Below, piece by piece: positions 22,500 to 40,282 of a stretch of DNA of 64,000 nucleotides. Numbering within the stretch: the first letter of the stretch is position 1; every line of letters starts with the position of its first letter. The position numbers and the translations under genes are program-made. Source of the DNA: a virus; IMG/VR virus record IMGVR_UViG_3300025770_000656; one strand, 5' to 3'. The notes below the pieces were generated by a model. It searched no databases. It was not told the origin of the DNA and was given only the letters and a program-made list of their open reading frames with translations.

Positions 22500-22539
22500 G
22501 TATGAGTAAGTTAAATTAATGCTTGGAGGAGCAAACAAG

Positions 22540-23691: not shown

Positions 23692-24339
23692 ATGGATGTA
23701 ATGAAAAAAGTAGCTCTAGGCGATAGTTTTACATACGGAGAGGAATTAGCTGATAGGAATAACGCATATCCGGCATTGCTTGGATATGAAAACTGGGGAT
23801 TAAAAGGTGCCAGTAATGAATATATTTTTCGTAAGGCTGTTGAACTAGCACCAAAAGCGGATCATATGATAATAGCCTGGAGTGACAGCGGGCGTTATGA
23901 GCTATATACTAATAAAAAAATAAATATATCTAATAGATATATTCAACATAACGGCATAGTACAAGTTAATCCAGGATGGACTCAGCTGAGTCCATGGTTT
24001 AAAGAATTGTACGGCAATTATAGTGATCAAGAACACCAATTCTTAAAAACAATATCATACATGGTTGCAATTCAAGACGTACTAGTGATTAATAATGTAG
24101 ATTATCTACAAACATCTAGCTTTGGTAACCAAGATTTATTTGTAAAGTACCAGGACAGTGATTTAATTAAGCCCTGGATTGCTAGGCTAGATAAGACTAA
24201 GTTCATAGACTATCCCCATGGATTAGTAGAATGGGCCTATGATACTCCGCAAGGGCCTAATGGACACCCGTTGGAACTAGGACATAAGAGGATAGCAGAA
24301 AACATTGTTAGATATATCAATGATTTACACAGTAGGTGA
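23692..24339 (+). CDS. SGNH/GDSL-like protein
   Basis: LGDSFTYG, NWGLKGASNE, GHPLELGH. Confidence 0.6.
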   Translation: MDVMKKVALGDSFTYGEELADRNNAYPALLGYENWGLKGASNEYIFRKAVELAPKADHMIIAWSDSGRYELYTNKKINISNRYIQHNGIVQVNPGWTQLSPWFKELYGNYSDQEHQFLKTISYMVAIQDVLVINNVDYLQTSSFGNQDLFVKYQDSDLIKPWIARLDKTKFIDYPHGLVEWAYDTPQGPNGHPLELGHKRIAENIVRYINDLHSR

Positions 24340-24949
24340 TAGTTTTACATACGGACAAGAATTATCCGATCCCGCAACACAAGCATGGCCCAAGTTAGTT
24401 GCTGATCGTCTTGGTTACCATTTAATTAATGATGGTACACCTGGAGTTAGCAATGAGTTTATGGTTAAGAAAACTATGCAAGCAGTTGCAAAGCACAAGC
24501 CTAAACTAGTAATAGTTGCTTGGACAAGTTGCGCTCGCGCAGAGTTTGCAGACGAATGGGGGGTATACGATGTATGGCCCGGATGTAGTGATCGTGTATT
24601 TGATGAAGATCCTAAACTAAAATACAGACACGATTTAATTAAATATATTACTAGGTACAATAATGATGTACACGAGTATCGTCGCTGGCTAAGACAAGTT
24701 ATCCTACTACAAAGTTTCTTGCAAAATCACAGCATAGAGTATATAATGTGTAATACGTTCGACAATCAAGAACGTTACAACTCTAATGAAGAATATATAA
24801 AACTTGTTGATACAACAAAATTTGTTGGTTGGCCTAATTATGGATTTGTTGAATGGGCATATAATACACCGCATGGACCTGGCGGACATCCACTAGAACA
24901 AGGTCATAAACAAATAGCGGAAAAGATATATGAAACCTTGTTGAAATAA
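24320..24949 (+). CDS. SGNH/GDSL-like protein (tandem paralog)
   Basis: VGDSFTYG, NDGTPGVSNE, GHPLEQGH; similar C-terminus to 23692. Confidence 0.6.
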   Translation: MIYTVGDSFTYGQELSDPATQAWPKLVADRLGYHLINDGTPGVSNEFMVKKTMQAVAKHKPKLVIVAWTSCARAEFADEWGVYDVWPGCSDRVFDEDPKLKYRHDLIKYITRYNNDVHEYRRWLRQVILLQSFLQNHSIEYIMCNTFDNQERYNSNEEYIKLVDTTKFVGWPNYGFVEWAYNTPHGPGGHPLEQGHKQIAEKIYETLLK

Positions 24950-25006: not shown

Positions 25007-25729
25007 ATGAGTATAATCTATAAAATTACAAACAAATTAAACGGTAAAATATATGTTGGAAAAAGTAAGTATAGCATGGATGATTATTTTGGATCAGGGA
25101 TTATTATAACGCATGCAATTAAAAAATATGGAATAGAAAACTTTACTAAAGAAATAATTGTTGAATGCGATGATGCTGAAATTGATGAGCTAGAAGGATA
25201 TTGGATAGAACAATTAAACGCACGTGACAAATCAGTGGGTTACAATATATCCAGCGGCGGACAGGGCGGAGACCACTATTGGAAAGTTATGTCCGATGAA
25301 GAAAGAGAGCAGCACCGAGAGAAAATCCGAAAAAGTATTAAGGGAAGAAAACGAGCACCGCATAGCGAAGAAACAAAAAGAAAAATGTCAGCGAGCTTTG
25401 GCCGCGTTGTGGCCGACGATCCGGAATTTATTGCTCGACGAGCAGCAAAGAAGAGAAAGCACTATATTATAATTGATCATGAGAATAAAGTAGTATACGA
25501 AACGGATAATATTGTGGAATTTTGCCAAGACAACGATGTACCGTCGCATGCTCGGTTACAACATAATGAGAGAAATAAGAAAACATACGTTGATGGTAGG
25601 TGGTCATGTAGATTAAAAGAGGAATATGTTATGGATAACGTAATCAGCTTTGTCGATAATGAGGTAGTTAATAACACAATAGAATATAAGATGAGACAAA
25701 CAGCAAATAGAAAAAAGGGAAATAAATGA
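25007..25729 (+). mobile_element. Free-standing GIY-YIG homing endonuclease (Seg-like, NUMOD3-type repeats)
   Basis: IYKITNKLNGKIYVGKS, YFGSG, ELEGYWI, GYNISSGGQGG, HSEETKRKMS. Confidence 0.85.
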
Positions 25730-27183
25730 AGCCGTGCGTTATTCATGTCAACGATGAAGTTAACTGTAAGTTAGAAGGCTTAGATTTGGATACCAGGCGT
25801 AAGCTGAGTAATAAGTTTAAGTATGATGTGCCAGGTGCTCGCTATATGCCAGCGGTAAGGCTAGGACGTTGGGACGGCAAGGTTGCTTTTTTCCAAATGG
25901 GAGGCAGTACTTACATTAACTTGTTACCAGAAATTCTTACTGTATTGCAGAGTGACGGATATGATGTTACGTTAAACGACTTACGTGATTATCAGATAGA
26001 CCTGAATTTAGAGCCTGTAACAGCAGATAGTTATGCTGAGTTTTCATGGCCTGACAAGCATCCAGCCGCAGGGCAACCTATTATGTTGCGTGACTATCAG
26101 GTAGATGTTATTAATAATTTCCTAACAAATCCGCAGAGCTTACAAGAAGTAGCAACTGGTGCTGGTAAGACACTTATTACAGCCGTGCTAAGTCACAGAT
26201 GCGAAGCACATGGCAGAACAGTTATTATTGTTCCTAACAAGAGCCTGGTAACGCAAACCCAAGAAGACTACATTAACATGGGATTAGATGTTGGCGTATA
26301 TTATGGTGACCGCAAGGAGTTTGGCAAAACACACACCATTTGTACCTGGCAGAGTTTAAACATACTGTTAAAAAATACCAAGAATCAGAGAGCAGAGATT
26401 ACTATTGGAGACTTCCTAGAAGACGTAGTTTGCATTATGGTAGACGAAGTACACATGGCAAAAGCAGATGCACTCAAGACATTGCTAACAGGAGTAATGA
26501 GTCATATACCTGTACGCTGGGGATTAACTGGAACAATACCCAAGGAAGATTTCGAAAAGCAAAGTTTGTTTTGTAGCATTGGGCCAGTAACCGGCAGCAT
26601 TAGTGCTAAAGAGTTGCAAGACAAAGGAGTTCTTGCAAATTGCGAAGTGAATGTGTTACAATTAATAGATGTAAAAGAGTATACAAACTATCAGAGTGAA
26701 CTTAAATACTTGTTGGAAGCCACTGATAGATTAGATTACATTGGTGGTGTAATAGATAATATTAAAGATACTGGTAATACGCTGGTATTGGTGGACAGAA
26801 TAAATGCAGGAAAAGAATTACAGAAAAGGATTCCGTCTTCCGTTTTTGTTAGCGGTGGAACAAAGGCACAGGAGCGTAAGGATCATTATGATGAGGTGGC
26901 TGACGCAACTGGTAAAGTTATTATTGCTACTTATGGTGTTGCCAGTGTTGGTATTAATATACCCCGTATTTTTAATTTGGTATTGTTGGAACCCGGCAAG
27001 AGCTTCGTCCGTGTTATCCAAAGTATCGGAAGAGGAATTAGAAAAGCAGAAGACAAGGACTTTGTCCAGATATGGGATGTTACATCGACGTGTAGGTTCG
27101 CGAAGAGGCACCTTACCAAAAGGAAAGCGTTCTATAAAGAGGCAAACTACCCCTTTACGGTTCAAAAAGTAGACTGGACTTAA
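25726..27183 (+). CDS. uvsW: UvsW-like SF2 DNA helicase
   Basis: LRDYQ, ATGAGKT, DEVH, GLTGT, ATYGVASVGINIP, QSIGRGIR. Confidence 0.85.
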   Translation: MKPCVIHVNDEVNCKLEGLDLDTRRKLSNKFKYDVPGARYMPAVRLGRWDGKVAFFQMGGSTYINLLPEILTVLQSDGYDVTLNDLRDYQIDLNLEPVTADSYAEFSWPDKHPAAGQPIMLRDYQVDVINNFLTNPQSLQEVATGAGKTLITAVLSHRCEAHGRTVIIVPNKSLVTQTQEDYINMGLDVGVYYGDRKEFGKTHTICTWQSLNILLKNTKNQRAEITIGDFLEDVVCIMVDEVHMAKADALKTLLTGVMSHIPVRWGLTGTIPKEDFEKQSLFCSIGPVTGSISAKELQDKGVLANCEVNVLQLIDVKEYTNYQSELKYLLEATDRLDYIGGVIDNIKDTGNTLVLVDRINAGKELQKRIPSSVFVSGGTKAQERKDHYDEVADATGKVIIATYGVASVGINIPRIFNLVLLEPGKSFVRVIQSIGRGIRKAEDKDFVQIWDVTSTCRFAKRHLTKRKAFYKEANYPFTVQKVDWT

Positions 27184-27217: not shown

Positions 27218-27718
27218 ATGCGAATTTTAACACTAGAAGATAAAGCCTACGAAATGAACGAAATACCTGACGAGGTAGAGGATCTTCTATTTGCTATCCT
27301 AGACAACAGTGATCCGCAAAATCCAGATTACTTTTTCAGACCTCTTATATTTTTGGAAAGTTTCAATGCTCCAGCTCTGGTATTGGATATTGCTGGCAAC
27401 AGAATTAAGATGCCAGTTGATTGGAAAATCCTTATAGGGGAACCAGATCATGGCGATTTAGAAATGACAAATTTAAGTAGTTTAAACGATCGTGGATTCA
27501 AGGCTTTTAGTTTTAATCCTATTAGCGGCTTTATTGCTGACTACTTGCCCATAGACATTGTAGATTTGTACACAGATGTAAAATGGTTCTTTCCTAAACT
27601 TAAACAAGGACAAATATTAGCTATCCCTATTCAAGTTGGAGACAAGCCTAAATGTGTTTATTGTGCTAAAGAAATAAACAAGCAAAATGAAGTTGTAGAT
27701 ATTACCAAGGCATTTTAA
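27218..27718 (+). CDS. Conserved phage protein, possibly a degenerate Hint fold
   Basis: 166 aa beta-rich; LVLDIAGNRIKMPVDWKILI resembles intein block B without the His. Confidence 0.4.
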   Translation: MRILTLEDKAYEMNEIPDEVEDLLFAILDNSDPQNPDYFFRPLIFLESFNAPALVLDIAGNRIKMPVDWKILIGEPDHGDLEMTNLSSLNDRGFKAFSFNPISGFIADYLPIDIVDLYTDVKWFFPKLKQGQILAIPIQVGDKPKCVYCAKEINKQNEVVDITKAF

Positions 27719-27720
27719 AC

Positions 27721-28002
27721 ATGGGTCAACAGTTATATTGGTTGATCAAAAAGAAAGATTACAGACAATTTGAATATCGTGTTAATCCAGAAAATGAGAC
27801 TCATTATTTTATAATTAGAGATTTCTTTCCGCGATTGGAAAGATATTTTAAAGATCGACCTCAACTACTAGCAGAACGTAAAATATATAGTAGTAATAGC
27901 AACAGGTACTATACTATAACATTTGCTGACTTAGCGGAAGCCCGCATGTTTGAGTTGCATTTTGCAGAACATATAAGAACTAACGGTACAAGATATGACT
28001 GA
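27721..28002 (+). CDS. Hypothetical protein
   Basis: 93 aa ORF coupled to neighbours. Confidence 0.6.
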   Translation: MGQQLYWLIKKKDYRQFEYRVNPENETHYFIIRDFFPRLERYFKDRPQLLAERKIYSSNSNRYYTITFADLAEARMFELHFAEHIRTNGTRYD

Positions 28003-28432
28003 TTTACCTCTTAACCAAGTACTGGGCGCACTGGATAACAAGGACATGGAGTTCTGGGATCGTTGCACTCCGGAACAGCAAAAGAAAATTGCACCCTTCT
28101 TGTTGAATCGTTATATGAGTCTGGTAAAAGGTAATACAGAACTAGCGTCATATTACTTAATGGCTACTAACCAACGTGTTAATTCTAACTACTTTTCACT
28201 TAGCAAGCACCCTAAACTGGTATGGCAATTGTTGTGTACAGTGAGTCCTGGCATGGGAAAACAATTCCATCAGTGGGTAGGCAATAAGAAAAAGAAGAAA
28301 GACAAGAGTAACGAGATACGCAAGACACTGGCTGAGATGTATCCCAATATGAAAAATGATGAACTGGACTTAATGACCAGTATCACTACTACCAAAGAAC
28401 TAAAAGCTCACGCCACTGAGTCAGGGGAATGA
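27995..28432 (+). CDS. Clamp loader small subunit (T4 gp62-like)
   Basis: LPLNQVLGALD...PFLLNRYMS...LAEMYPNMK..ELDLM pattern; replication context. Confidence 0.65.
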   Translation: MTDLPLNQVLGALDNKDMEFWDRCTPEQQKKIAPFLLNRYMSLVKGNTELASYYLMATNQRVNSNYFSLSKHPKLVWQLLCTVSPGMGKQFHQWVGNKKKKKDKSNEIRKTLAEMYPNMKNDELDLMTSITTTKELKAHATESGE

Positions 28433-29160
28433 GCGACTTGACTAACGTTATAGTAGATGCTATAATGAATAAACAAATGGTAGATAAAGAATTTGAATGT
28501 CGTTACTGTGGCAAAAAGTATCGCAAGGAAAGTACCCTTGCGGCACATCTTTGTGAGCCAAAGCGCAGAGCACAACAGGAAAAAGAACCTGGTGTACAGA
28601 TTGGATTAGCGGCATATCTGCGTTTTTATGAGATAACACAAGGGTCAGCTAAGTTTAAAACATATGCAGACTTTGCAACTGGACCATACTATAATGCATT
28701 TGTAAAGTTTGGTAGGCATTGCCAGAATATACGTGCAATTAACATTGCTGGGTTTATTGAATACGTTATTAAAGAAAACAAAAAGCTGGATCACTGGTGC
28801 AAGGATCAGTTTTATCAGGACTTTTTGTTTAACCATCTACGCCGTGAGAGTGTGCAGGATGCACTAGAGCGTAGCATGGAAACCATGGTATCCTGGGCAG
28901 AAGAGAAAGAAAGCATATACAGCCATTACTTCTTGTATGCTAATCCTAATCGTGTTACACATGACATTACTACAGGACGCATCAGTCCCTGGGTATTATT
29001 TAATTGTGCTAGTGGTATTGAAATGCTGGATAAGTTAAGTCCAGAGCAGATTGAAATAGCGTTCCCTTACATAGATACTGATTTTTGGAAACGTAAGTTT
29101 GTAGACTACTTGGCTGACACCGAGTGGGTTAAACATATTTTAAGTGAGGCTAAATTATGA
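28429..29160 (+). CDS. Conserved protein with N-terminal C2H2-like Zn finger
   Basis: FECRYCGKKYRKESTLAAHLC. Confidence 0.6.
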   Translation: MSDLTNVIVDAIMNKQMVDKEFECRYCGKKYRKESTLAAHLCEPKRRAQQEKEPGVQIGLAAYLRFYEITQGSAKFKTYADFATGPYYNAFVKFGRHCQNIRAINIAGFIEYVIKENKKLDHWCKDQFYQDFLFNHLRRESVQDALERSMETMVSWAEEKESIYSHYFLYANPNRVTHDITTGRISPWVLFNCASGIEMLDKLSPEQIEIAFPYIDTDFWKRKFVDYLADTEWVKHILSEAKL

Positions 29161-29711
29161 TCGATTTACCAGATATTGATATAGATTTTAAAAATAGAAC
29201 TCAGGTGCTGGGACTAATTAGCAATACTGGTGCTAGGTTAGAAACAGGAAAACAGCATAATACAGGAGTTTACTTTACAGACATTCCCAGTGGCAGTGAT
29301 GGTTTGGCTACTGTTGATCACAAAGCGGCAGAACAACTTGGTTATTTTAAGCTGGATTTACTTAATGTTAGCGTGTATGAACAGGTCCGTGACGAGGTTC
29401 ACTTAGTAGAACTGATGACCACTGAGCCTAATTGGAGTAAACTCTGGGAAGATCCTGAATACTGTGAAAAGATTGTACACATTGGCAACCATTACGACTT
29501 GGTTAAAAGCATGAAACCAGATAGTATTCCACGTATGGCAATGTTTTTGGCTGTAATGCGTCCCGGCAAAAGCTATTTGCGTAACAAACCCTGGGCAGAA
29601 GTTGGTAAAACAGTGTGGGATCGTCCAGCCAATGATAAGTATTTCTTTAAAAAGGCCCATGCTGTAAGTTATGCACACTTAGTAGTAGTCCATATGAATT
29701 TATTCAGATGA
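29157..29711 (+). CDS. Miniature family C DNA polymerase (DnaE palm-like) protein
   Basis: PDIDIDF, HNTGVYF, FKLDLL, LAVMRPG, YFFKKAHAVSYA in 184 aa. Confidence 0.8.
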   Translation: MIDLPDIDIDFKNRTQVLGLISNTGARLETGKQHNTGVYFTDIPSGSDGLATVDHKAAEQLGYFKLDLLNVSVYEQVRDEVHLVELMTTEPNWSKLWEDPEYCEKIVHIGNHYDLVKSMKPDSIPRMAMFLAVMRPGKSYLRNKPWAEVGKTVWDRPANDKYFFKKAHAVSYAHLVVVHMNLFR

Positions 29712-30886
29712 GTAAATTTTGTGTAGCATTGTTTAATGCAATACGGAAAGATCAAGACTTTCGTATACGACCCTGTTGTGTTTTTAGATCTAAAAAAAGC
29801 ATATATCAGATAGATGATTATTTAAAATCTGATTACATGGCCGATGCACGAAAACGCATGATTGACGGGCAATCTATACCAGAGTGCGGTGTATGCTGGC
29901 AAAAAGAAAAAGCAGGCTTAACAAGTTTACGCCACATATATAATCAACAGTTTTTACACAACAAAAATATTCCTGATAATATAGCTAAAAAAGCTAAAAC
30001 AAAAATTATCCAGGCAGATATAAAGATAGGTAACCGTTGCAATTATGCTTGTGCTATGTGTCATCCGGGAGATAGTAGTTTAATCTTTAACAAATATAAA
30101 GCGAATCTAGATAACAAATTTGTGCAAGAGTATAGTAAAAAAAATTCAAATTTTATGGATGCGAAATTAAACACTAACTATAGAAATACTAGCCTGCAAA
30201 TGTTAGATAATGTATTATCAACAACTAGTGTACGTAGTATTAAAATACTAGGTGGTGAACCGTTATTAGAACAAGAATTCTTAAAACGATTAGCTTCTGT
30301 GCCAGACGCACATAAACAAAAAATAACATTATGGGTAGTAACTAACGGTAGTATAGATTTAGTGAATACATTATCCAAGCTGGGCAAGTATAAAGCAATT
30401 GTCGTAACAGTAAGTTTAGAAGGAACAGGAAAGTTACAAGAATATGTCAGGAAACGAAGTAGTTGGCAACAGATTGAATCTAACATCTGTAAGTTTTTAG
30501 AGTTTAATAATCCACGTTGGTTCTTAGGTGTACACCACACTATGCAAGCATTAAGTTTGCATGGATTGGTAGATTTAATAACGTGGTGTGATGGGTTAGG
30601 TATAAAGATTACATATCAAAACTTAACAAACCCTGACTATCTAAGTTTAGCTATTACGTCTCCGGAGTACAGACGACAACAAATGGATAATGTAAATGTA
30701 CAGGGTACCAATAATTTTCAAGGTGAGGATTTAAATTTATCTGGAGATCTTGCTAGTTATTGTCTACAACAGGATTATAAACCGGAGTTGGTGGGAAAAT
30801 TTTTAAAGTATTGTAAATTTTATGAGTCAGATCATAACCTAAAATTACTAGAAGTTGCTCCAGAATTACTTGACTCTTTTAACTAG
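29708..30886 (+). CDS. Radical SAM protein with N-terminal twitch/SPASM-like domain
   Basis: RPCC...CGVCW; CNYACAMC; GGEPLL; VTNG. Confidence 0.85.
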   Translation: MSKFCVALFNAIRKDQDFRIRPCCVFRSKKSIYQIDDYLKSDYMADARKRMIDGQSIPECGVCWQKEKAGLTSLRHIYNQQFLHNKNIPDNIAKKAKTKIIQADIKIGNRCNYACAMCHPGDSSLIFNKYKANLDNKFVQEYSKKNSNFMDAKLNTNYRNTSLQMLDNVLSTTSVRSIKILGGEPLLEQEFLKRLASVPDAHKQKITLWVVTNGSIDLVNTLSKLGKYKAIVVTVSLEGTGKLQEYVRKRSSWQQIESNICKFLEFNNPRWFLGVHHTMQALSLHGLVDLITWCDGLGIKITYQNLTNPDYLSLAITSPEYRRQQMDNVNVQGTNNFQGEDLNLSGDLASYCLQQDYKPELVGKFLKYCKFYESDHNLKLLEVAPELLDSFN

Positions 30887-31237
30887 GGTAATATTTTTAC
30901 GTTTGCTTCGTGTTTTTGCTAGTTCTGCTATATTAACACTGGGTCCAAACTTAACTTCAACATCTTTTATGTTAAATGTTGTAAGTGTATATGCAAATTT
31001 CTTCCAGTCATGCTTTAAAAACAGGTTAATAGGTATACGCTGATTACTTTCCCACCACCAAATCTCTGCTAGATCTAAAAATTCTTGCACATCATGACTA
31101 TATAAGGCTTCATAATTATACAGACTTAATACAACTTCATCGCTGTTTTGAATAATGCCTACATACTCATTTCCGCCATACGTTAGCATGCTTAGAAAAG
31201 GGTACTTTTCCTTTATCTCGTCACTTAATCTTGTCAT
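30866..31237 (-). CDS. Conserved hypothetical phage protein
   Basis: YPFLS...YVGIIQN...WWWES...PINLFL. Confidence 0.7.
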   Translation of the reverse strand: MTRLSDEIKEKYPFLSMLTYGGNEYVGIIQNSDEVVLSLYNYEALYSHDVQEFLDLAEIWWWESNQRIPINLFLKHDWKKFAYTLTTFNIKDVEVKFGPSVNIAELAKTRSKRKNITLVKRVK

Positions 31238-31261: not shown

Positions 31262-32020
31262 ATGGGTACCATCACTAGTTACTTATACAAACAAAAATTA
31301 CAGGTTACAACTACTGATGTGACTGCGGGGAATACTATGAGCATGTTTTATACACCAAACATCAAAGTTTACAGAGGTATCGATAATCCAGTCAGAGTAA
31401 ATTTTGTTAACAGAGATCAAAAAAAGACTAGCTTAACAGACAAGACTGTTAGCTTTATAATGATTGATAAAGATACAAATAAGACACTACTTTCCAGGAG
31501 TGTTACTAATATTAATGCGCCACTTGGATATGGTGAATTTACACTACGTGATGTAGATACCTATAATTTGGATAGCAAATATTACACGTATAGCTTTAAA
31601 GTTACAGACGGCGAGGGTAATGTACAAATTGGATACAGTGATGATAACTATGGTGCTGGCGGTGTACTAGAGCTAGTAGAAGGTGTATATCCAACATTCC
31701 AGGCAAGTACAACAGAAGACTTTGGTAATGGCGATACTGGCAGTATAATTTATTTGGACCCACACGTTAATCGAAATGTAGCATTGCATAGTGCTCAAGT
31801 TTACTTTTCAAGTGCATTTACAGGCACACTTACCGTTGCAGGAAGTCTTAACCCCAGCGGCGGGGGAATCAGTTCAGACGATTTCACAACTATTAGTACT
31901 CAAACTTACACATCGCAGACTGATAATGTGGTGTTTAGTTGGAACGGTGTTTACAGTGCAATACGGTTTACTAGAGCAACAACTTCTGGTACACTTAGTA
32001 AAGTACTGTATCGCCCATGA
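31262..32020 (+). CDS. Putative virion structural or baseplate-adaptor protein
   Basis: Beta-rich, Thr/Ser-rich; TATAAATA at 31246. Confidence 0.45.
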   Translation: MGTITSYLYKQKLQVTTTDVTAGNTMSMFYTPNIKVYRGIDNPVRVNFVNRDQKKTSLTDKTVSFIMIDKDTNKTLLSRSVTNINAPLGYGEFTLRDVDTYNLDSKYYTYSFKVTDGEGNVQIGYSDDNYGAGGVLELVEGVYPTFQASTTEDFGNGDTGSIIYLDPHVNRNVALHSAQVYFSSAFTGTLTVAGSLNPSGGGISSDDFTTISTQTYTSQTDNVVFSWNGVYSAIRFTRATTSGTLSKVLYRP

Positions 32021-32688
32021 CCCTAGTAGGATTTGGTTGTAGTTTTACATACGGCAGTGAATTATTAAATCCAGAACTAGAAGATAGTTGGGATCGTCAT
32101 AATGACAATACTCCTTATAGAGAAAAGCATACATGGTTGGGACAATTAGCTGAAAGGCTGGATTGTAAAGCAATAAATTTAGCAGAACCGGGTTGCAGTA
32201 ATTATGCATTACAAGAAAATTTTGCAAAATATGTTCATGAAAATGATTGCTCTAATATAATAATTGCTGTAGCTTGGACAAATCATTTACGCTATAGTTG
32301 GTGGAGTGATGATCAACAACGTTGGGTACATGATGGCTTTATACGTTACAACAATGATAATGATGAATTATTTATGGATAGTTTTAAGGAATGGCTAGCC
32401 TTAAGTTATGATCGCAGCGAACAGATAACTAAAAATGCAAAGTTGTTTGTTAATAGCGTTTGCCAAAGTCATGGAATAAAATTAATACAGTTTGACGCAC
32501 TACCAAATGTAAATGGCCATTATGGTAATTTCCATCAACAAGGCAGAAATATGTTGGATGTATTAAAAAAAGAAGCTGAACGCTTAGATAGAACATTCAT
32601 TACTGCTGGTGATCATCCTACTGAAGCAGGGCATGCATATTATGCTAAATTGCTACATTCATGGATAAGGGCTAAGAAAAATGTATAA
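32017..32688 (+). CDS. SGNH/GDSL-like protein
   Basis: FGCSFTYG, NLAEPGCSNY, GDHPTEAGH. Confidence 0.6.
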   Translation: MTLVGFGCSFTYGSELLNPELEDSWDRHNDNTPYREKHTWLGQLAERLDCKAINLAEPGCSNYALQENFAKYVHENDCSNIIIAVAWTNHLRYSWWSDDQQRWVHDGFIRYNNDNDELFMDSFKEWLALSYDRSEQITKNAKLFVNSVCQSHGIKLIQFDALPNVNGHYGNFHQQGRNMLDVLKKEAERLDRTFITAGDHPTEAGHAYYAKLLHSWIRAKKNV

Positions 32689-33463
32689 TAGATTCTTTGC
32701 CTTCGGATGTAGTTTTACACTTTACAAATGGCCAACATGGGCTGATTATTTGTATGCAGGAGGTATAGCAGAAGCATACGAAAACTGGGCTCTACCTGGC
32801 GGCAGTAATGATTTTGTATTTCATAGCTTAATTGAATGTAGCAGTTTGCGTGGCATAACAGCAGAAGATTATGTAGCCATAATGTGGAGTCAGCCTTGGC
32901 GTATCGCAGATTACACAAACGAACAAGGTTGGGACATGCCTGGTAATGCATATTTGTATCAACCCAAAGAGCGTGTAAAATATCTACATGAAGATCAAAT
33001 AGCTCTAGAGAATCAAACGTATTTTAGAGCCTCTATTAACATGCTACAAGCAATAGGATGTGACTTTACGTTCACTAGCATGGAAAGAATTGATTTACAA
33101 TTTGAGGATGTGTACGCTACTCAAGATTATTTTAAACCTAGTATGGCAGAGTTTCTAGGTTACACAGGCCCTAATGAAACGGATTGGAAAGAAACACTAC
33201 CTGGAGATAGACATCCTAGTCCTAGAGAACATGCAAGTTTTGCTAAAACTTTAGATACAAGTTTAAATCATTCATTAATAGACAAACTTTGTGATGCTAG
33301 TGAAAGTTACATATTTGAAAGTGATCGTCCCCACAGACAAGAGATTACAGTATTTCCAGAAAAAATACCACAAGACAGGTTGCCAAATGTTGAAAGTAAA
33401 GTTAATTCAGGTTCGGGAAGTTTAATTGATGTCAATAGAATTCAGCCTTTCGACTGGGAATGA
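32681..33463 (+). CDS. SGNH/GDSL-like protein
   Basis: FGCSFT, NWALPGGSND, DRHPSPREH. Confidence 0.6.
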   Translation: MYNRFFAFGCSFTLYKWPTWADYLYAGGIAEAYENWALPGGSNDFVFHSLIECSSLRGITAEDYVAIMWSQPWRIADYTNEQGWDMPGNAYLYQPKERVKYLHEDQIALENQTYFRASINMLQAIGCDFTFTSMERIDLQFEDVYATQDYFKPSMAEFLGYTGPNETDWKETLPGDRHPSPREHASFAKTLDTSLNHSLIDKLCDASESYIFESDRPHRQEITVFPEKIPQDRLPNVESKVNSGSGSLIDVNRIQPFDWE

Positions 33464-34494: not shown

Positions 34495-35295
34495 ATGAAA
34501 TTGTTATTTAATGACAAATCTAGTATAGAAATTAAAACTCGTGACTGCCTAGCTTGGTCTGAAGTACATACAATGTATAGGCATCTTCAGCATGTTGATA
34601 TTCCTTTTAAAGAGTGGGACAATCCCTGCTATACATCACAGCACAGTTTTAAAAGTTTAGTAGATAAGTTAGCACATTTTGGTAAACTGTTGGACATAAA
34701 CATAGACATATCGCGATGTTTAGAATTAGACCAAACTTACTATAACGAAATACATAAAATATATGAAGATAATTATAACGGAACCCCAGCATGGTTAGAT
34801 TTCCACGAACATATACATATATGTGAACGAAAAAATCCAAAGATTTCTAGTACAATCAAATTTGATTGGCGTGAAAAGGCAGGCCCGTTAATAAAAAAAA
34901 TTAATAAAGACTTATATACTGACCTAACTACTAAGATTGCCGCTGGTGACGTGTTTACAAAGTGGTCAGAATTAGGCAAAACTCCTTACCTATATTGGAA
35001 GGATGGCGAGCCCAACAATATTAGACGTATTTGTGAGTTAGCTAAACCCTGGGATAAACTTAACCCTGTGCTTTGTATAGCTATGCAGGATATAGATCTA
35101 TTAGACAACAATGATGTTAATGGGTTTAACAAATGGTGGAAGATTTATGAAAACAACTGGTGCAAGCATTGGCAAATTGAAAAATGGTCATTACAAGATA
35201 TGCGTGGAGTTCTTGTATACGGGACGATTGACAATGTCGAATTATTAAAGTATAATCTTATGCATAACATCTCTCCAGTTAGAATTAGTCTATGA
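34495..35295 (+). CDS. Hypothetical protein
   Basis: 266 aa ORF. Confidence 0.6.
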   Translation: MKLLFNDKSSIEIKTRDCLAWSEVHTMYRHLQHVDIPFKEWDNPCYTSQHSFKSLVDKLAHFGKLLDINIDISRCLELDQTYYNEIHKIYEDNYNGTPAWLDFHEHIHICERKNPKISSTIKFDWREKAGPLIKKINKDLYTDLTTKIAAGDVFTKWSELGKTPYLYWKDGEPNNIRRICELAKPWDKLNPVLCIAMQDIDLLDNNDVNGFNKWWKIYENNWCKHWQIEKWSLQDMRGVLVYGTIDNVELLKYNLMHNISPVRISL

Positions 35296-36257
35296 ACTCT
35301 ATACAACAAACTGTATTGGATAATCTACCTAGGTTAAAGCGTAGTCCTGGCGGATGGTATACATTTAATGCTGTATGTTGTCATCACAATGCTGAAAGCA
35401 TGGATAAAAAAGGCAGAGGTGGTGTAATTACAGATGGCGAAGCTGTAACGTATCACTGTTTTAACTGTGGCTATAAGACTGGATGGAGACCTGGTAGGCA
35501 TATAAGTTACAAGTTTCGCAAACTACTAGACTGGATGGGCGTAGCGGAGAACGAACGACAACGCATGGTTGTTGAAGCACTGCGTATTAAAGAAACTGTA
35601 GTTATTAAAGAAGAGGAAGCTGAGCCAGAGTTTACTATTGAATTTAAAGATCGTGTACTTCCACAAGATTGTGTGCCATTATCAGAAGCACCACAAGAGT
35701 TACAAGACTATGCATTAAGCAGAAGTATGCCCATAGACCAGTTACGATGGAGCGATACAAAGCCAGGAAGAATGTACAGACGTATTATTATCCCTTGCAG
35801 TTGGCAAGGGCGTGTAATAGGCTCAACAGCTAGAGCAGTTGACGAAAAAACAAAGCCCAAGTACTTTAATAACTATGACAGTAATTATGTATATGGTATA
35901 GATAGACAGGTAATAGGGGGAAAGTTCAGTGTGGTATGTGAAGGAGTTATCGATGCGCTCACTATTGGTGGTGTTGCTACACTTACCAATAGATGCAATG
36001 ACACCCAGGCACAAATTATTGATACACTGGGCAGGGAAATTGTGTTGGTACCTGACAGAGACAAAGCAGGACAGAAGTTAATAGACGATGCACTAGAGTA
36101 TGGCTGGAGTGTTAGTTTTCCTGAATGGGAGGCTGACGTAAAAGACATTAATGCTGCTGTTATACGTTATGGTAAATTGTTTACACTAAAGAGTATCATT
36201 GATGCTAAACAAACTAATAGTTTAAAGATTAATTTAATGAGAAAACAGTATGGTTAG
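35292..36257 (+). CDS. DNA primase (T4 gp61/DnaG-like)
   Basis: N-terminal Zn-binding region (CCHH...YHCFNCG); TOPRIM VCEGVIDAL and PDRD. Confidence 0.85.
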   Translation: MNSIQQTVLDNLPRLKRSPGGWYTFNAVCCHHNAESMDKKGRGGVITDGEAVTYHCFNCGYKTGWRPGRHISYKFRKLLDWMGVAENERQRMVVEALRIKETVVIKEEEAEPEFTIEFKDRVLPQDCVPLSEAPQELQDYALSRSMPIDQLRWSDTKPGRMYRRIIIPCSWQGRVIGSTARAVDEKTKPKYFNNYDSNYVYGIDRQVIGGKFSVVCEGVIDALTIGGVATLTNRCNDTQAQIIDTLGREIVLVPDRDKAGQKLIDDALEYGWSVSFPEWEADVKDINAAVIRYGKLFTLKSIIDAKQTNSLKINLMRKQYG

Positions 36258-37152
36258 TTTACATGTAGAACCAACTAGTAGATGTACATTAGCTTGTCCT
36301 CGTTGCGAGAGAACAGAGTTGCTATCTAAATTTGGTAAAAAGGCATTGCCTATTAACGATCTTAATATTAATGACTTTAAAACTTTCATTGATATTGATA
36401 TTGATAATATTAATTTTTGTGGAAATCTTGGTGATCCTATATATCATAAAAACTTTTTAGAATTAGTAAAAGAAAGTAAACTAGTTGCTAAAGCTGTTAA
36501 TATTACTACTAACGGCAGTCGTAAAAGCAGAGCATGGTGGAAAAAACTTAATGCAATACTAGACGATAAAGACACAGTAACATTTAGCATTGATGGTACT
36601 CCAGATAACTTTACACGTTATCGTATTAACGGCGATTGGCCTAGTATTCGTGTTGGTATAGACGAATGCGTATTAGGCTCAGTAAGAGTAGTATGGAAAT
36701 ATATTCCATTTAAGTTTAATGAAAATGATATGGAATATACACGTTTACTATCAAATGAACTAGGAATAGACGAGTTTGAAGTTCATCCTAGTGACAGATG
36801 GAATGAAGCTGACGAGAGTATTAACACTCTACGTCCTACGCTAGAGTCGTTAGTAGCCTCTAGGGATATTGTACAAAGAAAATTTGAAACTACTACATCA
36901 AGAGATTTTGTTATAGATCCTAGGTGTAAGAATAACAAAGAGCATTTTATCAGCAGTGACGGCTACTATTCGCCATGCTGTTTTAGCAAACACTATAACT
37001 TTCATTATAAGAGTCAATGGCATAAAAATAAAGAGGATCATGTCATTAAAACTAGTAAATTAAGTAATCAGATATCTTATTTTAATAATTTTTATGCTAC
37101 AATACAGACTAGTAAACCAGACTATTGTATCTTTAATTGCGGGAGATGCTAA
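36250..37152 (+). CDS. Radical SAM protein
   Basis: CTLACPRC, GNLGDP, TTNG, FSIDG; C-terminal SPCC. Confidence 0.85.
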   Translation: MVSLHVEPTSRCTLACPRCERTELLSKFGKKALPINDLNINDFKTFIDIDIDNINFCGNLGDPIYHKNFLELVKESKLVAKAVNITTNGSRKSRAWWKKLNAILDDKDTVTFSIDGTPDNFTRYRINGDWPSIRVGIDECVLGSVRVVWKYIPFKFNENDMEYTRLLSNELGIDEFEVHPSDRWNEADESINTLRPTLESLVASRDIVQRKFETTTSRDFVIDPRCKNNKEHFISSDGYYSPCCFSKHYNFHYKSQWHKNKEDHVIKTSKLSNQISYFNNFYATIQTSKPDYCIFNCGRC

Positions 37153-37763
37153 TGTTATATATTAATGGGTGTTCGTGGACTGACAGTTTTATATTTAGAG
37201 ATTCATTGTCAAACAATGACATACTTGTAATTAACAATGCTGCAAGTGGCAACAGCAATTTTCAAATTTGTCGACAAACAAAATATGACTTAAAGAATTT
37301 TAGCAAACATTTTGATAAAATAACAGCAATAATTTTTCTTACAGAAGCATTTAGATCTGAATATGAATATAAAATGGCCAAAGGCCCAGGAAGCCTCCAA
37401 GATTTAGCGAGTAAGAGTTTACATCAAATGAAAAAAGCAATTGACTCTTCATTGCCTAATAATGTTAACATAATATATTCATCTAGTTTTGTAGATCTTC
37501 CCTGGGAAACAAACTTTCCAAGTATGTTAACACTGGCATGCAAGGCACATGGAATAATTCAAGAAGAAACTCAGTGTTACACTACTAAAGTAATTAAGGT
37601 TCAGAAAATTCATGAACTTAAACCTAATCTTAAAGATTTAGATATTATTATTGATAGATTAAACACTATTGAAAAAATTCCTAATCAACAGAATTACCAC
37701 ATAAAGGATTCTATATCATATACTGCCGTAGTTAAACAAATTCAAGAGGTATTAAATGGCTAA
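37137..37763 (+). CDS. Divergent SGNH/GDSL-like protein
   Basis: INGCSWT, NNAASGNSN; start uncertain. Confidence 0.45.
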   Translation: MREMLMLYINGCSWTDSFIFRDSLSNNDILVINNAASGNSNFQICRQTKYDLKNFSKHFDKITAIIFLTEAFRSEYEYKMAKGPGSLQDLASKSLHQMKKAIDSSLPNNVNIIYSSSFVDLPWETNFPSMLTLACKAHGIIQEETQCYTTKVIKVQKIHELKPNLKDLDIIIDRLNTIEKIPNQQNYHIKDSISYTAVVKQIQEVLNG

Positions 37764-39144
37764 AGAATATACACCAGACTTACAAAAACTATTCATTGAG
37801 ATGATGATGCAAGATGCACAGAACTATGTAAGAGTGCAAAACATCTTTAATGTAGAAAACTTTGATCGTAGTTTAAAAGATGCGGCTGAGTTTATTAAGA
37901 GTCATTGCACTAATCACACAGCAATGCCTACATATGAACAGCTAAATGCAGCAACTGGTGTAAACGCAAAGCCTATTCCAGACATGGCAGATGGACATAA
38001 TGATTGGTTCTTGGAAGAGTTTGAAGGCTTTACAAAGCGTCAAGAACTAGAACGTGCCATACTTAAAGCGGCAGACATGCTGGAAAAAGGCACATATGAT
38101 CCAGTGGAAAAACTGATCAAGGATGCAGTACAAATTAGTTTAACCAAAGATCTAGGTACAAGTTACTTTGACAACCCTAGAGAACGACTAATGAAGTTAA
38201 AGGATAATAACGGACAAGTAAGCACAGGTTGGCCAGCACTGGATCGTAAACTATTTGGCGGCATGAACAAAGGTGAACTTAACATCTTTGCAGGCGGCAG
38301 TGGCAGTGGTAAAAGTTTGTTTATGCAGAACTTAGCAGTTAACTGGGTTACAAGCGGGCTCAGTGGTGTGTATGTAAGTTTAGAACTAAGTGAAGAACTT
38401 AGTGCAATGCGTATTGATAGTATGCTTACAAATGTTAGCACCAAGGAAATATTTAAAGACTTAGACACTGTGGAAATGAAAGTTAAAATGGTTGGCAAGA
38501 AATCTGGCACACTACAGATTAAATACTTGCCAGCACAGAGTACAGTAAATGATATACGTGCATACTTAAAAGAATTGGAGATAACAAAAGATCTTAAAGC
38601 AGACTTTGTGCTTATTGATTACTTGGATTTGGTTATGCCAGTTAGTGCTAAAGTAAGTCCCAATGACTTGTTTGTTAAAGACAAGTACGTCAGTGAGGAA
38701 CTACGTAACCTAGCAAAGGAATTACAGTGTATCTTTGTAACAGCTAGTCAGTTAAATCGCGGTGCAGTAGAAGAGATTGAGTTTGATCACAGCCATATTG
38801 CTGGCGGACTTAGTAAGATTAATACAGCAGATAACGTGTTTGGTATCTTTACAAGTAGAGCAATGCGAGAACGTGGACGCTATCAACTACAACTTATGAA
38901 AACACGTAGTAGTAGTGGTGTTGGCAGTAAAGTTGATTTAGAGTTTGATTTAGAAAGTCTGCGTATTAGAGACCTGGGAGAAGATGAAGATACCAGCAAA
39001 GAACGTGGTAACATCATGGGCCAGCTTAAAGACAAGTCTGATGCGTCTGCTGGAAGTGGTGATGCGGAGGTAGGTAAAATTACTGCTAATGTACAAAGCA
39101 GTAAACTAAAAGATATGCTAGCGAGTTTAAAGCAGAATGACTGA
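37756..39144 (+). CDS. Replicative DNA helicase (DnaB/T4 gp41-like)
   Basis: STGWPALD, GGSGSGKS, SLEL, LIDYLD, TASQLNR, MKTR. Confidence 0.9.
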   Translation: MAKEYTPDLQKLFIEMMMQDAQNYVRVQNIFNVENFDRSLKDAAEFIKSHCTNHTAMPTYEQLNAATGVNAKPIPDMADGHNDWFLEEFEGFTKRQELERAILKAADMLEKGTYDPVEKLIKDAVQISLTKDLGTSYFDNPRERLMKLKDNNGQVSTGWPALDRKLFGGMNKGELNIFAGGSGSGKSLFMQNLAVNWVTSGLSGVYVSLELSEELSAMRIDSMLTNVSTKEIFKDLDTVEMKVKMVGKKSGTLQIKYLPAQSTVNDIRAYLKELEITKDLKADFVLIDYLDLVMPVSAKVSPNDLFVKDKYVSEELRNLAKELQCIFVTASQLNRGAVEEIEFDHSHIAGGLSKINTADNVFGIFTSRAMRERGRYQLQLMKTRSSSGVGSKVDLEFDLESLRIRDLGEDEDTSKERGNIMGQLKDKSDASAGSGDAEVGKITANVQSSKLKDMLASLKQND

Positions 39145-40282
39145 TGATATAAAGTCACAGCCTGGATTTTGCTACGATATATTCAAAAATCAAGCCTTTT
39201 GGAGTACACGAAACACAATAGGATACAATCCTTGCTGTAATTACGATGGTTATATCGCAACAGATATTACGCCTGAACAGGCATGGCTCGGTGCAGAACA
39301 TTTTGCCATTATTGACAGTGTAGCGCGAGGAGAACTTGTACCAGGCTGTCATAACTGTTATCGAGCAGAACAAGCAGGACTTGTTAGTAGACGCATGGGT
39401 AGTAAAGAACTGTACGAAAACTATCACAAAGACGCCGACATAACTCTCACTGATACGCCCAGAGCATTAGATTATAGTGTAGGTAACTTGTGTAATCTTA
39501 AATGCACTATTTGTGGACCTAGCAACAGCAGTAAATGGATTAGCGATTGGGCTAAACTTTATCCTAATACAAACATAGACAATTTTTTATACAGGAAAGA
39601 TCAATATGTAAAGATTGATGATTTAGAATATCTTAAAAATATTAGAAGCGTTCACTTTCATGGTGGTGGCGATCCTTTGCTCAGTGATGCACATGTAAAA
39701 CTATTACAAAACATTGAAGCCAGTAAAGGGTTAAGCGATGTTAGAGTATTTTACAATATTAATGCTACTAACCGTGTGAGTGACGATGTTCTAGATCTTT
39801 GGAGTAGGTGTGATATTGTAGAACTATATTTTAGCATTGATGATGTAGAAGATAGATTTGAATACCAACGTACCGGTGCATTATGGCAAGACACTGTAGA
39901 CATTATGCAATGGTATCATGAACATATGCCAGTTAATCATTTGTTTTATATTAACTGCACTTGGGGATACCTTAACCTATATTATCTAGATGAATTGTAC
40001 AATTGGTATAAAGAAAGTTTTAGTGAAAATAGGCTAGGCGATCCAGTTAAATTAATATTTCAAAAATGTTTAGGCACATACAGTTTAGATTGGGTAAGTG
40101 CAAAAACTATGCAAGTACTAAAAGATAAATTCAAACCGTATCCTGAAATATACGGGCTACTTGCAATATTAGATATACAAGAAAAACCGCATACAACGTT
40201 TTGGGATATAGTAAGTCGTACAGACAAAATCCGTAATCTCAACTTCCGCAACCTTTGTTCTGAATGGAGTAAATTATTATGA
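39137..40282 (+). CDS. Radical SAM protein with N-terminal twitch/SPASM-like domain
   Basis: NPCC...CHNC; CNLKCTIC; GGGDP; FSID. Confidence 0.85.
   Translation: MTDDIKSQPGFCYDIFKNQAFWSTRNTIGYNPCCNYDGYIATDITPEQAWLGAEHFAIIDSVARGELVPGCHNCYRAEQAGLVSRRMGSKELYENYHKDADITLTDTPRALDYSVGNLCNLKCTICGPSNSSKWISDWAKLYPNTNIDNFLYRKDQYVKIDDLEYLKNIRSVHFHGGGDPLLSDAHVKLLQNIEASKGLSDVRVFYNINATNRVSDDVLDLWSRCDIVELYFSIDDVEDRFEYQRTGALWQDTVDIMQWYHEHMPVNHLFYINCTWGYLNLYYLDELYNWYKESFSENRLGDPVKLIFQKCLGTYSLDWVSAKTMQVLKDKFKPYPEIYGLLAILDIQEKPHTTFWDIVSRTDKIRNLNFRNLCSEWSKLL

Follow-up and report, generated by a model that had tools for sequence, protein, structure and literature searches.

In cyanobacteria, the C-family DNA polymerase DnaE originates from two distant genes carrying a naturally split intein, and the protein is of full size after splicing. 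A minimal split DNA polymerase III (Pol III) alpha was described for group 2.2 jumbo phages by Iyer, Anantharaman, Krishnan, Burroughs and Aravind (2021, Viruses 13:63, PMC7824862). According to the passages of that article drawn on here, it is made up of two separate proteins, of which the N-terminal unit binds NTP and the C-terminal unit binds Mg2+ and the template; their genes lie far apart, and the enzyme accompanies a family B polymerase. The open reading frame (ORF) analyzed in this study is located on IMG/VR virus record IMGVR_UViG_3300025770_000656, a stretch of 64,000 nucleotides which is referred to as a whole as the window. The ORF (hereafter C-unit) very probably codes for the C-terminal half of a minimal C-family polymerase core that is composed of two polypeptides and typical of group 2.2 jumbo phages. 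It is a new uncultured member of the family described in 2021, which is already labelled in PHROGs and GenBank. As far as the passages of Iyer et al. go, the window member reveals no essential difference from their split Pol III alpha. It has the same length, motifs and T4-like replication context and matches phrog_11778 over its full length, and relatives of the window phage likewise possess a distant gene for the N-terminal unit (N-unit) and a family B polymerase. Compared to the same passages, the exact split point, a natural fusion of N- and C-unit, the quantified purifying selection, a conserved cassette of UvsW, p166, p145, Zn-243 and C-unit genes and the presence of the family in 141-kb non-jumbo Alishewanella phages are additional.

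The original prediction, made from the nucleotide sequence, had described a miniature polymerase of 184 amino acids (aa) with several motifs in DnaE order and a tight coupling to its neighbors. This description was borne out. The motifs PDIDIDF (residues 5-11), HNTGVY (34-39), FKLDLL (64-69), LAVMRPG (131-137) and YFFKKAHAVSYA (162-173) follow each other as in DnaE. The start codon overlaps the stop codon of the upstream 243-aa gene (ATGA, 29157-29160) and is preceded by GAGG at a distance of approximately 9 nt, and the stop codon overlaps the ATG of a downstream radical-SAM gene (ATGA, 29708-29711). By searching PHROGs, the whole C-unit was found to match phrog_11778 (197 positions, label 'DNA polymerase') with an E value of 2.6e-54 (residues 6-183 versus profile positions 8-191), besides weak matches to full-length DnaE-like PHROGs. 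Together with collinear blocks shared with Escherichia coli and structural matches restricted to C-family enzymes (see below), this places the resemblance well beyond chance. The C-unit gave no match in Pfam or NCBIfam, and a single-sequence phmmer search of the PDB yielded only a spurious match to a designed repeat.

Structure prediction of the C-unit alone, which had been suggested as a check, gave a confident model resembling C-family polymerases only. The AlphaFold2 (AF2) model, calculated with a 30-sequence alignment, reached a predicted local distance difference test score (pLDDT) of 91.6. In an exhaustive structural comparison, its top seven matches were all C-family polymerases (Z 6.0-9.6), the next match having a Z of 3.9. 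They included PolC of G. kaustophilus (3f2b, Z 9.6), Taq Pol III alpha (2hpi, Z 9.3), DnaE1 of M. tuberculosis (5lew, Z 9.3) and the E. coli enzyme (5m1s, Z 7.5 over chain residues 398-776), and 180-182 of the 184 C-unit residues were aligned in the C-family matches. The top 15 structures retrieved by Foldseek were Pol III alpha without exception. At the sequence level, the family profile of the C-unit and E. coli Pol III alpha (2hnh numbering) have three collinear blocks in common, in which C-unit residues 3-24, 113-137 and 148-174 correspond to 398-421, 617-641 and 739-766, respectively. By hhalign, residues 30-138 were aligned to E. coli 507-642. This alignment to a single E. coli sequence had a probability of 8% and served for residue mapping only; it is consistent with the HMMER blocks and with the ranges aligned structurally. 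The resulting equivalences are D6 to D401, D8 to D403, D10 to D405, K65 to K553, D67 to D555 and H168 to H760. Hence, the three catalytic aspartates are kept (D6, D8 and D67), as had been claimed from the motifs. Neither they nor D10, K65, R135, P136, H168 or Y172 varied among 30 homologues with identities down to 53%.

The C-unit shares with bacterial DnaE and PolC (2hnh/5m1s, 2hpi, 3f2b) the Pol-beta-like palm, the D401/D403/D555 triad, K553, the RPG motif and an NKSH-type helix with H760. By contrast, it has only about one sixth of their length, lacks the PHP domain and the thumb and possesses a truncated finger. The phage protein is also devoid of the beta-clamp-binding, HhH, OB and tau-binding regions, and its core is distributed over two polypeptides. 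The thumb (E. coli approximately 422-506) is cut to about five residues (C-unit 25-29), and about nine residues (139-147) take the place of an insert in the finger that comprises about 96 residues (E. coli approximately 643-738). The protein ends at the equivalent of E. coli residue 776 or thereabouts, everything beyond being absent; no Pfam match to beta-clamp-binding, HhH or OB elements was obtained for the C-unit. There was likewise no Pfam match to a PHP domain in the C-unit, whose alignment spans E. coli 398-776 only, and both the N-units and the fused form begin near the equivalent of E. coli residue 270. The earlier enumeration of absent domains (PHP, thumb, most of the fingers, clamp-binding region, HhH and OB) is thus correct. 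At its other end, the C-unit starts five residues ahead of the DxD strand and comprises no more of the palm than its C-terminal half. A motif scan for the GS/R362 triphosphate-binding loop detected it neither in the C-unit nor in any other ORF of the window.

The first half of the palm is encoded by a separate gene in the relatives of the window phage. Three related complete genomes (PAC2, fEgEco12 and Phosso) were searched with the Pfam profile DNA_pol3_alpha (PF07733). All three contained a second small gene, which matched profile positions from about 20 to 97 above the curated cut-off, and the N-unit of a further relative (G006) likewise passed this cut-off. The N-units of the three complete genomes comprise 169-177 aa, N-units overall about 163-186 aa, and in PHROGs they constitute phrog_11127. 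Their C-terminal end reads '...WGVGRGSSVASY...LD..EFL' (GRGSS.AS pattern) and lies just past the GS triphosphate-binding loop. The N-units stop exactly where the window ORF begins; the split falls inside the palm, with the GS loop on one side and the DxD strand on the other. In 50,697 phage records, the numbers of N-units and C-units per genus were 34/34 for Escherichia, 11/11 for Pseudomonas, 8/8 for Erwinia and 4/4 each for Xanthomonas and Yersinia; surplus N-unit matches were ordinary full-length DnaE genes of other phages. An N-unit is also listed for Alishewanella phage Slickus01. The two genes are 11-224 kb apart (Alishewanella approximately 11 kb, XacN1 15 kb, RaK2 34 kb, PA5oct 43.5 kb, Atu_ph07 182 kb and Phosso 224 kb).

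A natural fusion of both units was detected on an ENA metagenome contig (P0170, L008:1066-2193). It is a single chain of 375 aa with a continuous reading frame, in which the C-unit occupies residues 187-372. A shared-word search for longer relatives of the C-unit found none; P0170 emerged from the exhaustive search of family representatives, where it was the only fused form among the best 150 listed of 483. Its N-terminal half belongs to phrog_11127 and is 66% identical to stand-alone N-units of 179 aa, its C-terminal half belongs to phrog_11778, and the Pfam domain DNA_pol3_alpha crosses the junction (E 4.8e-16). The fusion resides at the usual locus of the N-unit, as the gene upstream of it matches the gene directly upstream of a stand-alone N-unit (L078). 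P0170 was folded by AF2 on a mixed alignment checked by hand (A6; 4 N-units and 29 C-units), and the model was confident over residues 71-375. It matched 5lew with Z 21.9 (301 aa), 2hpi with Z 21.4 (root-mean-square deviation 3.2 A), PolC with Z 20.6 and E. coli 5m1s with Z 16.1 over chain residues 270-773, and the best match outside the C family was a generic Pol-beta-fold nucleotidyltransferase (Z 4.6). From these matches it follows that N- and C-unit together rebuild the palm and a reduced finger of Pol III alpha. The predicted structure is the strongest evidence here that the products of the two genes would share one active site. Of the original suggestion that the protein is one subunit of a split replicase, the split C-family polymerase is substantiated by the partner N-units, the flush ends and the fusion, but the word 'replicase' is unproven as relatives have a family B polymerase.

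The C-unit is widespread. By tblastn, it was identified in 96 isolate phage genomes among the phage records, always with a length of about 180-190 aa. The hosts of the gene include PA5oct-like Pseudomonas phages (49% identity), Sinorhizobium phage Phosso, Atu_ph07, the RaK2/PBECO4/121Q group, XacN1 and others. No isolate phage exceeded 49% identity to the C-unit of the window, and several GenBank records already name the homologues 'DNA polymerase (III alpha)'. Both 141-kb Alishewanella phages (OQ508956.1 and OQ508957.1) carry the gene; hence, the split mini-Pol III also extends to phages with genomes of less than 200 kb. The nearest record to the window phage (G001) is a 55.6-kb fragment with a C-unit and without an N-unit. 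Homologues were assigned to 6,037 clusters at 90% identity (range 101-322 aa), almost all of them with a length of about 185-195 aa; the best 120 listed measured 182-215 aa. The 483 representatives at 50% identity were found among 1.84 billion, and in the best 150 listed all but one comprised 233 aa or less.

Relaxed selection, a loss of the aspartates and an origin as deletion remnant had been raised together with the original prediction, and all three were examined. Selection turned out to be strongly purifying instead. The C-unit and its nearest relative (97-98% aa identity) differ by 25 synonymous and 5 non-synonymous substitutions (omega 0.043), and over 10 unsaturated pairs omega had a median of 0.10 and a maximum of 0.25. 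The aspartates were never lost in the 30 homologues, and the short length is the norm of the family. Some relatives additionally harbor an unsplit, PHP-less DnaE of 572 aa, which was found in a 117-kb relative with an 82% identical C-unit (G004, L079:1432-3150) and on two further contigs (L059 and L019). This protein belongs to phrog_405 and matches PF07733 (147 bits) as well as the finger domain PF17657. Its gene lies on the strand opposite to an intact C-unit and is separated from it by a few kb; hence, some phages carry two miniaturised C-family polymerases. Both are compact PHP-less phage proteins of the C family with an LPD(V/I)DIDF motif that occur on the same contigs. The longer one, however, is unsplit, retains the thumb and a finger detectable by Pfam and represents a different PHROG. 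It is absent from the 64-kb window. As a sign that the C-unit is a remnant it was rejected, because it is a separate family, coexists with an intact C-unit and does not occur in the window. A possible OB-like tail was seen in the 572-aa protein. Altogether, the gene of the window is neither a complete polymerase nor a pseudogene, and the right label for it is C-terminal unit of a split minimal Pol III alpha.

Taking these data into account, we infer that the two products form a heterodimeric polymerase. The C-unit would supply the beta-strand with the metal-binding residues D6 and D8 plus D10, a second palm segment with K65 (equivalent to K553) and the third aspartate D67, and a cut-down finger including the FKKAH helix, in which H168 corresponds to E. 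coli H760. The N-unit (about 170 aa, phrog_11127, encoded tens of kb away) would contribute the first half of the Pol-beta-like palm, and its GRGS loop with the R362 equivalent would hold the triphosphate. Both units may join non-covalently, without an intein, into one active site using deoxynucleoside triphosphates. The enzyme would most likely act as an auxiliary polymerase alongside a family B replicase, with repair, gap filling, synthesis of one strand or recombination-dependent synthesis as possible tasks, and clade-specific proteins encoded upstream may assist it. An auxiliary role is likelier than bulk replication because the thumb, the clamp-binding region and OB are missing and relatives possess a family B replicase. 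A family B polymerase of 825-1013 aa was detected in all three complete relatives and in one 60%-complete contig, and none was recognised among the window ORFs inspected, which are a part of all window ORFs. In PAC2 (PP408249.1, 202949-206726), family B polymerase matches were obtained in two separate open frames of 825 aa and 379 aa with a spacing of about 2.5 kb, so that the PolB gene of PA5oct-like phages may be split or interrupted.

Several points weigh against a two-piece polymerase core. The N-unit was not found in the 64-kb window by tblastn and motif scan, the window ending 34 kb downstream of the C-unit, and consequently the partner of the window phage is a presumed one, deduced from its relatives. 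PF07733, by which the N-units were recognized, fails to detect the C-unit itself. The fused form is known from a single metagenome contig of 2.4 kb. Thumb, most of the fingers, clamp-binding region, HhH and OB are missing, which makes a hold of the protein on primer-template DNA hard to explain. The family B polymerase of the relatives implies that the split enzyme need not replicate anything. Finally, neither biochemical nor structural work on the split mini-Pol III family came up in the literature search.

Some of these points lend themselves to other interpretations. The pair might be a non-catalytic module, i.e. a structural or regulatory part of the replisome or a nucleotide-binding sensor that is derived from a polymerase and no longer polymerizes. 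The reduced architecture without thumb, clamp-binding region, HhH and OB, the presence of a family B polymerase in relatives and the fact that activity was never shown in the literature searched would be in line with such a function. Inactivated polymerase domains, however, usually lose active-site residues, and here the three aspartates, D10, K65 and H168 are invariant in the homologues and the N-units keep their GRGS loop, which makes this explanation improbable. The omega values of approximately 0.04-0.1 reveal constraint, but do not by themselves separate a non-catalytic module from an active polymerase. The proposal of a minimal nucleotidyltransferase, in which the C-unit alone binds metal and nucleotide and catalyzes transfer, is not supported. 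It is true that the three catalytic aspartates and K65 are all on this chain, that the chain folds confidently by itself and that there is no partner in the 64-kb window. Yet the preceding half of the Pol-beta-like palm and the GS loop reside in the N-unit, both units co-occur in isolate genomes and have been fused once, and the structural match to C-family enzymes climbs from Z 9.6 for the C-unit to about 22 for the fusion. An enzyme consisting of the C-unit alone is therefore very improbable.

For the joining of the two chains, the cyanobacterial dnaE genes offer a precedent, as they are a known case of a C-family polymerase made from two distant genes by protein trans-splicing. The phage pair has this genetic arrangement of a C-family catalytic subunit in common with them, but lacks intein halves and is split inside the palm, and its assembly is presumably non-covalent. 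The end of the N-unit and the start of the C-unit (M-x-x-L-P-D-I-D-I-D) are flush with DnaE-homologous sequence, the units are too small to accommodate an IntN (about 100 aa) or an IntC (about 35 aa), and no intein/Hint match was obtained in Pfam or PHROGs. Trans-splicing of the phage proteins is thus exceedingly improbable. The longer 572-aa enzyme encoded nearby in some close relatives might suggest that the gene is left over from a deletion in a full-length phage DnaE or is decaying as a pseudogene. This notion is virtually out of the question, since the short length is the rule in the 6,037 clusters, selection is strongly purifying with invariant catalytic residues and phrog_405 is a separate family standing beside the intact C-unit rather than replacing it. 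Going further than a two-piece core, the split mini-Pol III alpha could be the catalytic heart of an unrecognised multi-subunit phage polymerase, in which the products of the conserved upstream genes p166, p145 and Zn-243 replace thumb, finger and clamp-binding functions. This is rather doubtful, but if true, these phages would possess, in addition to the family B enzyme, another polymerase of bacterial type with a task of its own, e.g. synthesis of one strand, recombination-dependent synthesis with UvsW or copying of modified DNA.

For the window phage, the immediate value of the analysis is a correct annotation of the gene. Should the two-piece core of about 350 residues be active, it would represent the smallest DNA polymerase of the C family by a wide margin and a natural minimal model for the working and evolution of these enzymes, as proposed in the passages of Iyer et al. 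considered here. Activity would also raise the question what makes thousands of large phages retain a core of bacterial type in addition to a T4-type family B replicase. For studies of the family at the bench, the natural fusion offers a concrete construct, and the cassette conserved upstream offers candidate partners.

The C-unit is embedded in a replication region (Table 1). The original prediction had placed it among a clamp-loader subunit, a primase and a helicase. The primase and helicases of the UvsW and DnaB types are indeed present, but for the clamp-loader subunit there was only a weak match of an AAA protein at 22519 to phrog_168 (E = 3e-4).

Table 1. Position of the C-unit, its key codons and neighboring genes in the window
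Feature	Position	Strand	Remarks
C-unit ORF	29157..29711	+	184 aa, ATG start; C-terminal (Mg2+/template-binding) unit of split minimal DNA Pol III alpha
Catalytic Asp codons in C-unit	D6 29172-29174; D8 29178-29180; D67 29355-29357	+	
Other key C-unit codons	D10 29184-29186; K65 29349-29351	+	
Other key C-unit codons	R135-P136 29559-29564; H168 29658-29660	+	H168 = E. coli H760
UvsW-type SF2 DNA helicase	25726..27183	+	Head of cassette; Pfam ResIII/DEAD/Helicase_C/UvsW_N; phrog_16; synteny
p166	27218..27718	+	Conserved, 166 aa, directly after UvsW; phrog_11279 E 3.6e-46; syntenic
p145	27995..28432	+	Conserved, 145 aa; phrog_11758 E 4.9e-21; syntenic in most related loci
Zn-243	28429..29160	+	Conserved, 243 aa, N-terminal C2H2/C2HC zinc finger; phrog_11058 E 1.7e-56
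Radical-SAM enzyme	29708..30886	+	Coupled to C-unit stop; Pfam Radical_SAM E 2.4e-9
Conserved convergent gene	30866..31237	-	123 aa; phrog_11637 E 7.3e-33; directly follows C-unit in isolate phages
DnaG-type primase	35292..36257	+	TIGR01391 E 4.7e-11; phrog_47 E 5.7e-35
DnaB-type replicative helicase	37756..39144	+	TIGR00665 E 2e-20; phrog_19 E 3.9e-69

Most of 68 IMG/VR loci, as well as the three isolates examined, have the genes on one strand in the order UvsW, p166, p145, Zn-243 and C-unit. This order is kept down to 39% identity of the C-unit, with variable insertions between the genes. In the phage records, p166 was present 94 times, Zn-243 93 times and the C-unit 96 times, with the same genus spectrum. 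The products of p166, p145 and Zn-243 are candidate accessory subunits, although their co-distribution may simply reflect a shared clade. In Zn-243, the finger residues C24, C27, H40 and C42 are invariant. The zf-C2H2 match in Pfam was weak, and a search of the PDB with the Zn-243 profile (E 6.4e-5) covered the finger only. For p166 and the body of Zn-243, there was no detectable solved relative or atlas lead. The idea that p145 resembles the small clamp-loader subunit gp62 of T4 was dropped since a profile search of the PDB, which presumably includes T4 clamp-loader structures, gave only a chance match and no detectable relative of known structure. A 93-aa ORF between p166 and p145 (27721-28002) is well conserved in the nearest relative only (94%) and weak or absent elsewhere, and can therefore be regarded as a variable small gene inside the conserved cassette.

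Downstream of the C-unit, the radical-SAM gene has no counterpart at this place in any of the three isolate phages or in the majority of the IMG/VR loci, but it is present in locus L025; it is a lineage-specific insertion and not a part of the polymerase. At the position of the phrog_11637 gene, minus-strand genes are likewise found in PAC2 and Phosso. Radical-SAM genes (29708-30886, 36250-37152 and 39137-40282) lie right after the C-unit, primase and DnaB genes, each coupled to the preceding gene. Immediately upstream of UvsW, a GIY-YIG-type homing endonuclease is encoded (25007-25729; phrog_314, E 4.6e-38). Moreover, several paralogues with GDSFTYG-, GCSFTYG- or GCSFT-like starts are interspersed among the replication genes (23692-24949, 32017-33463 and 37137-37763), and by eye they resemble SGNH/GDSL hydrolases.

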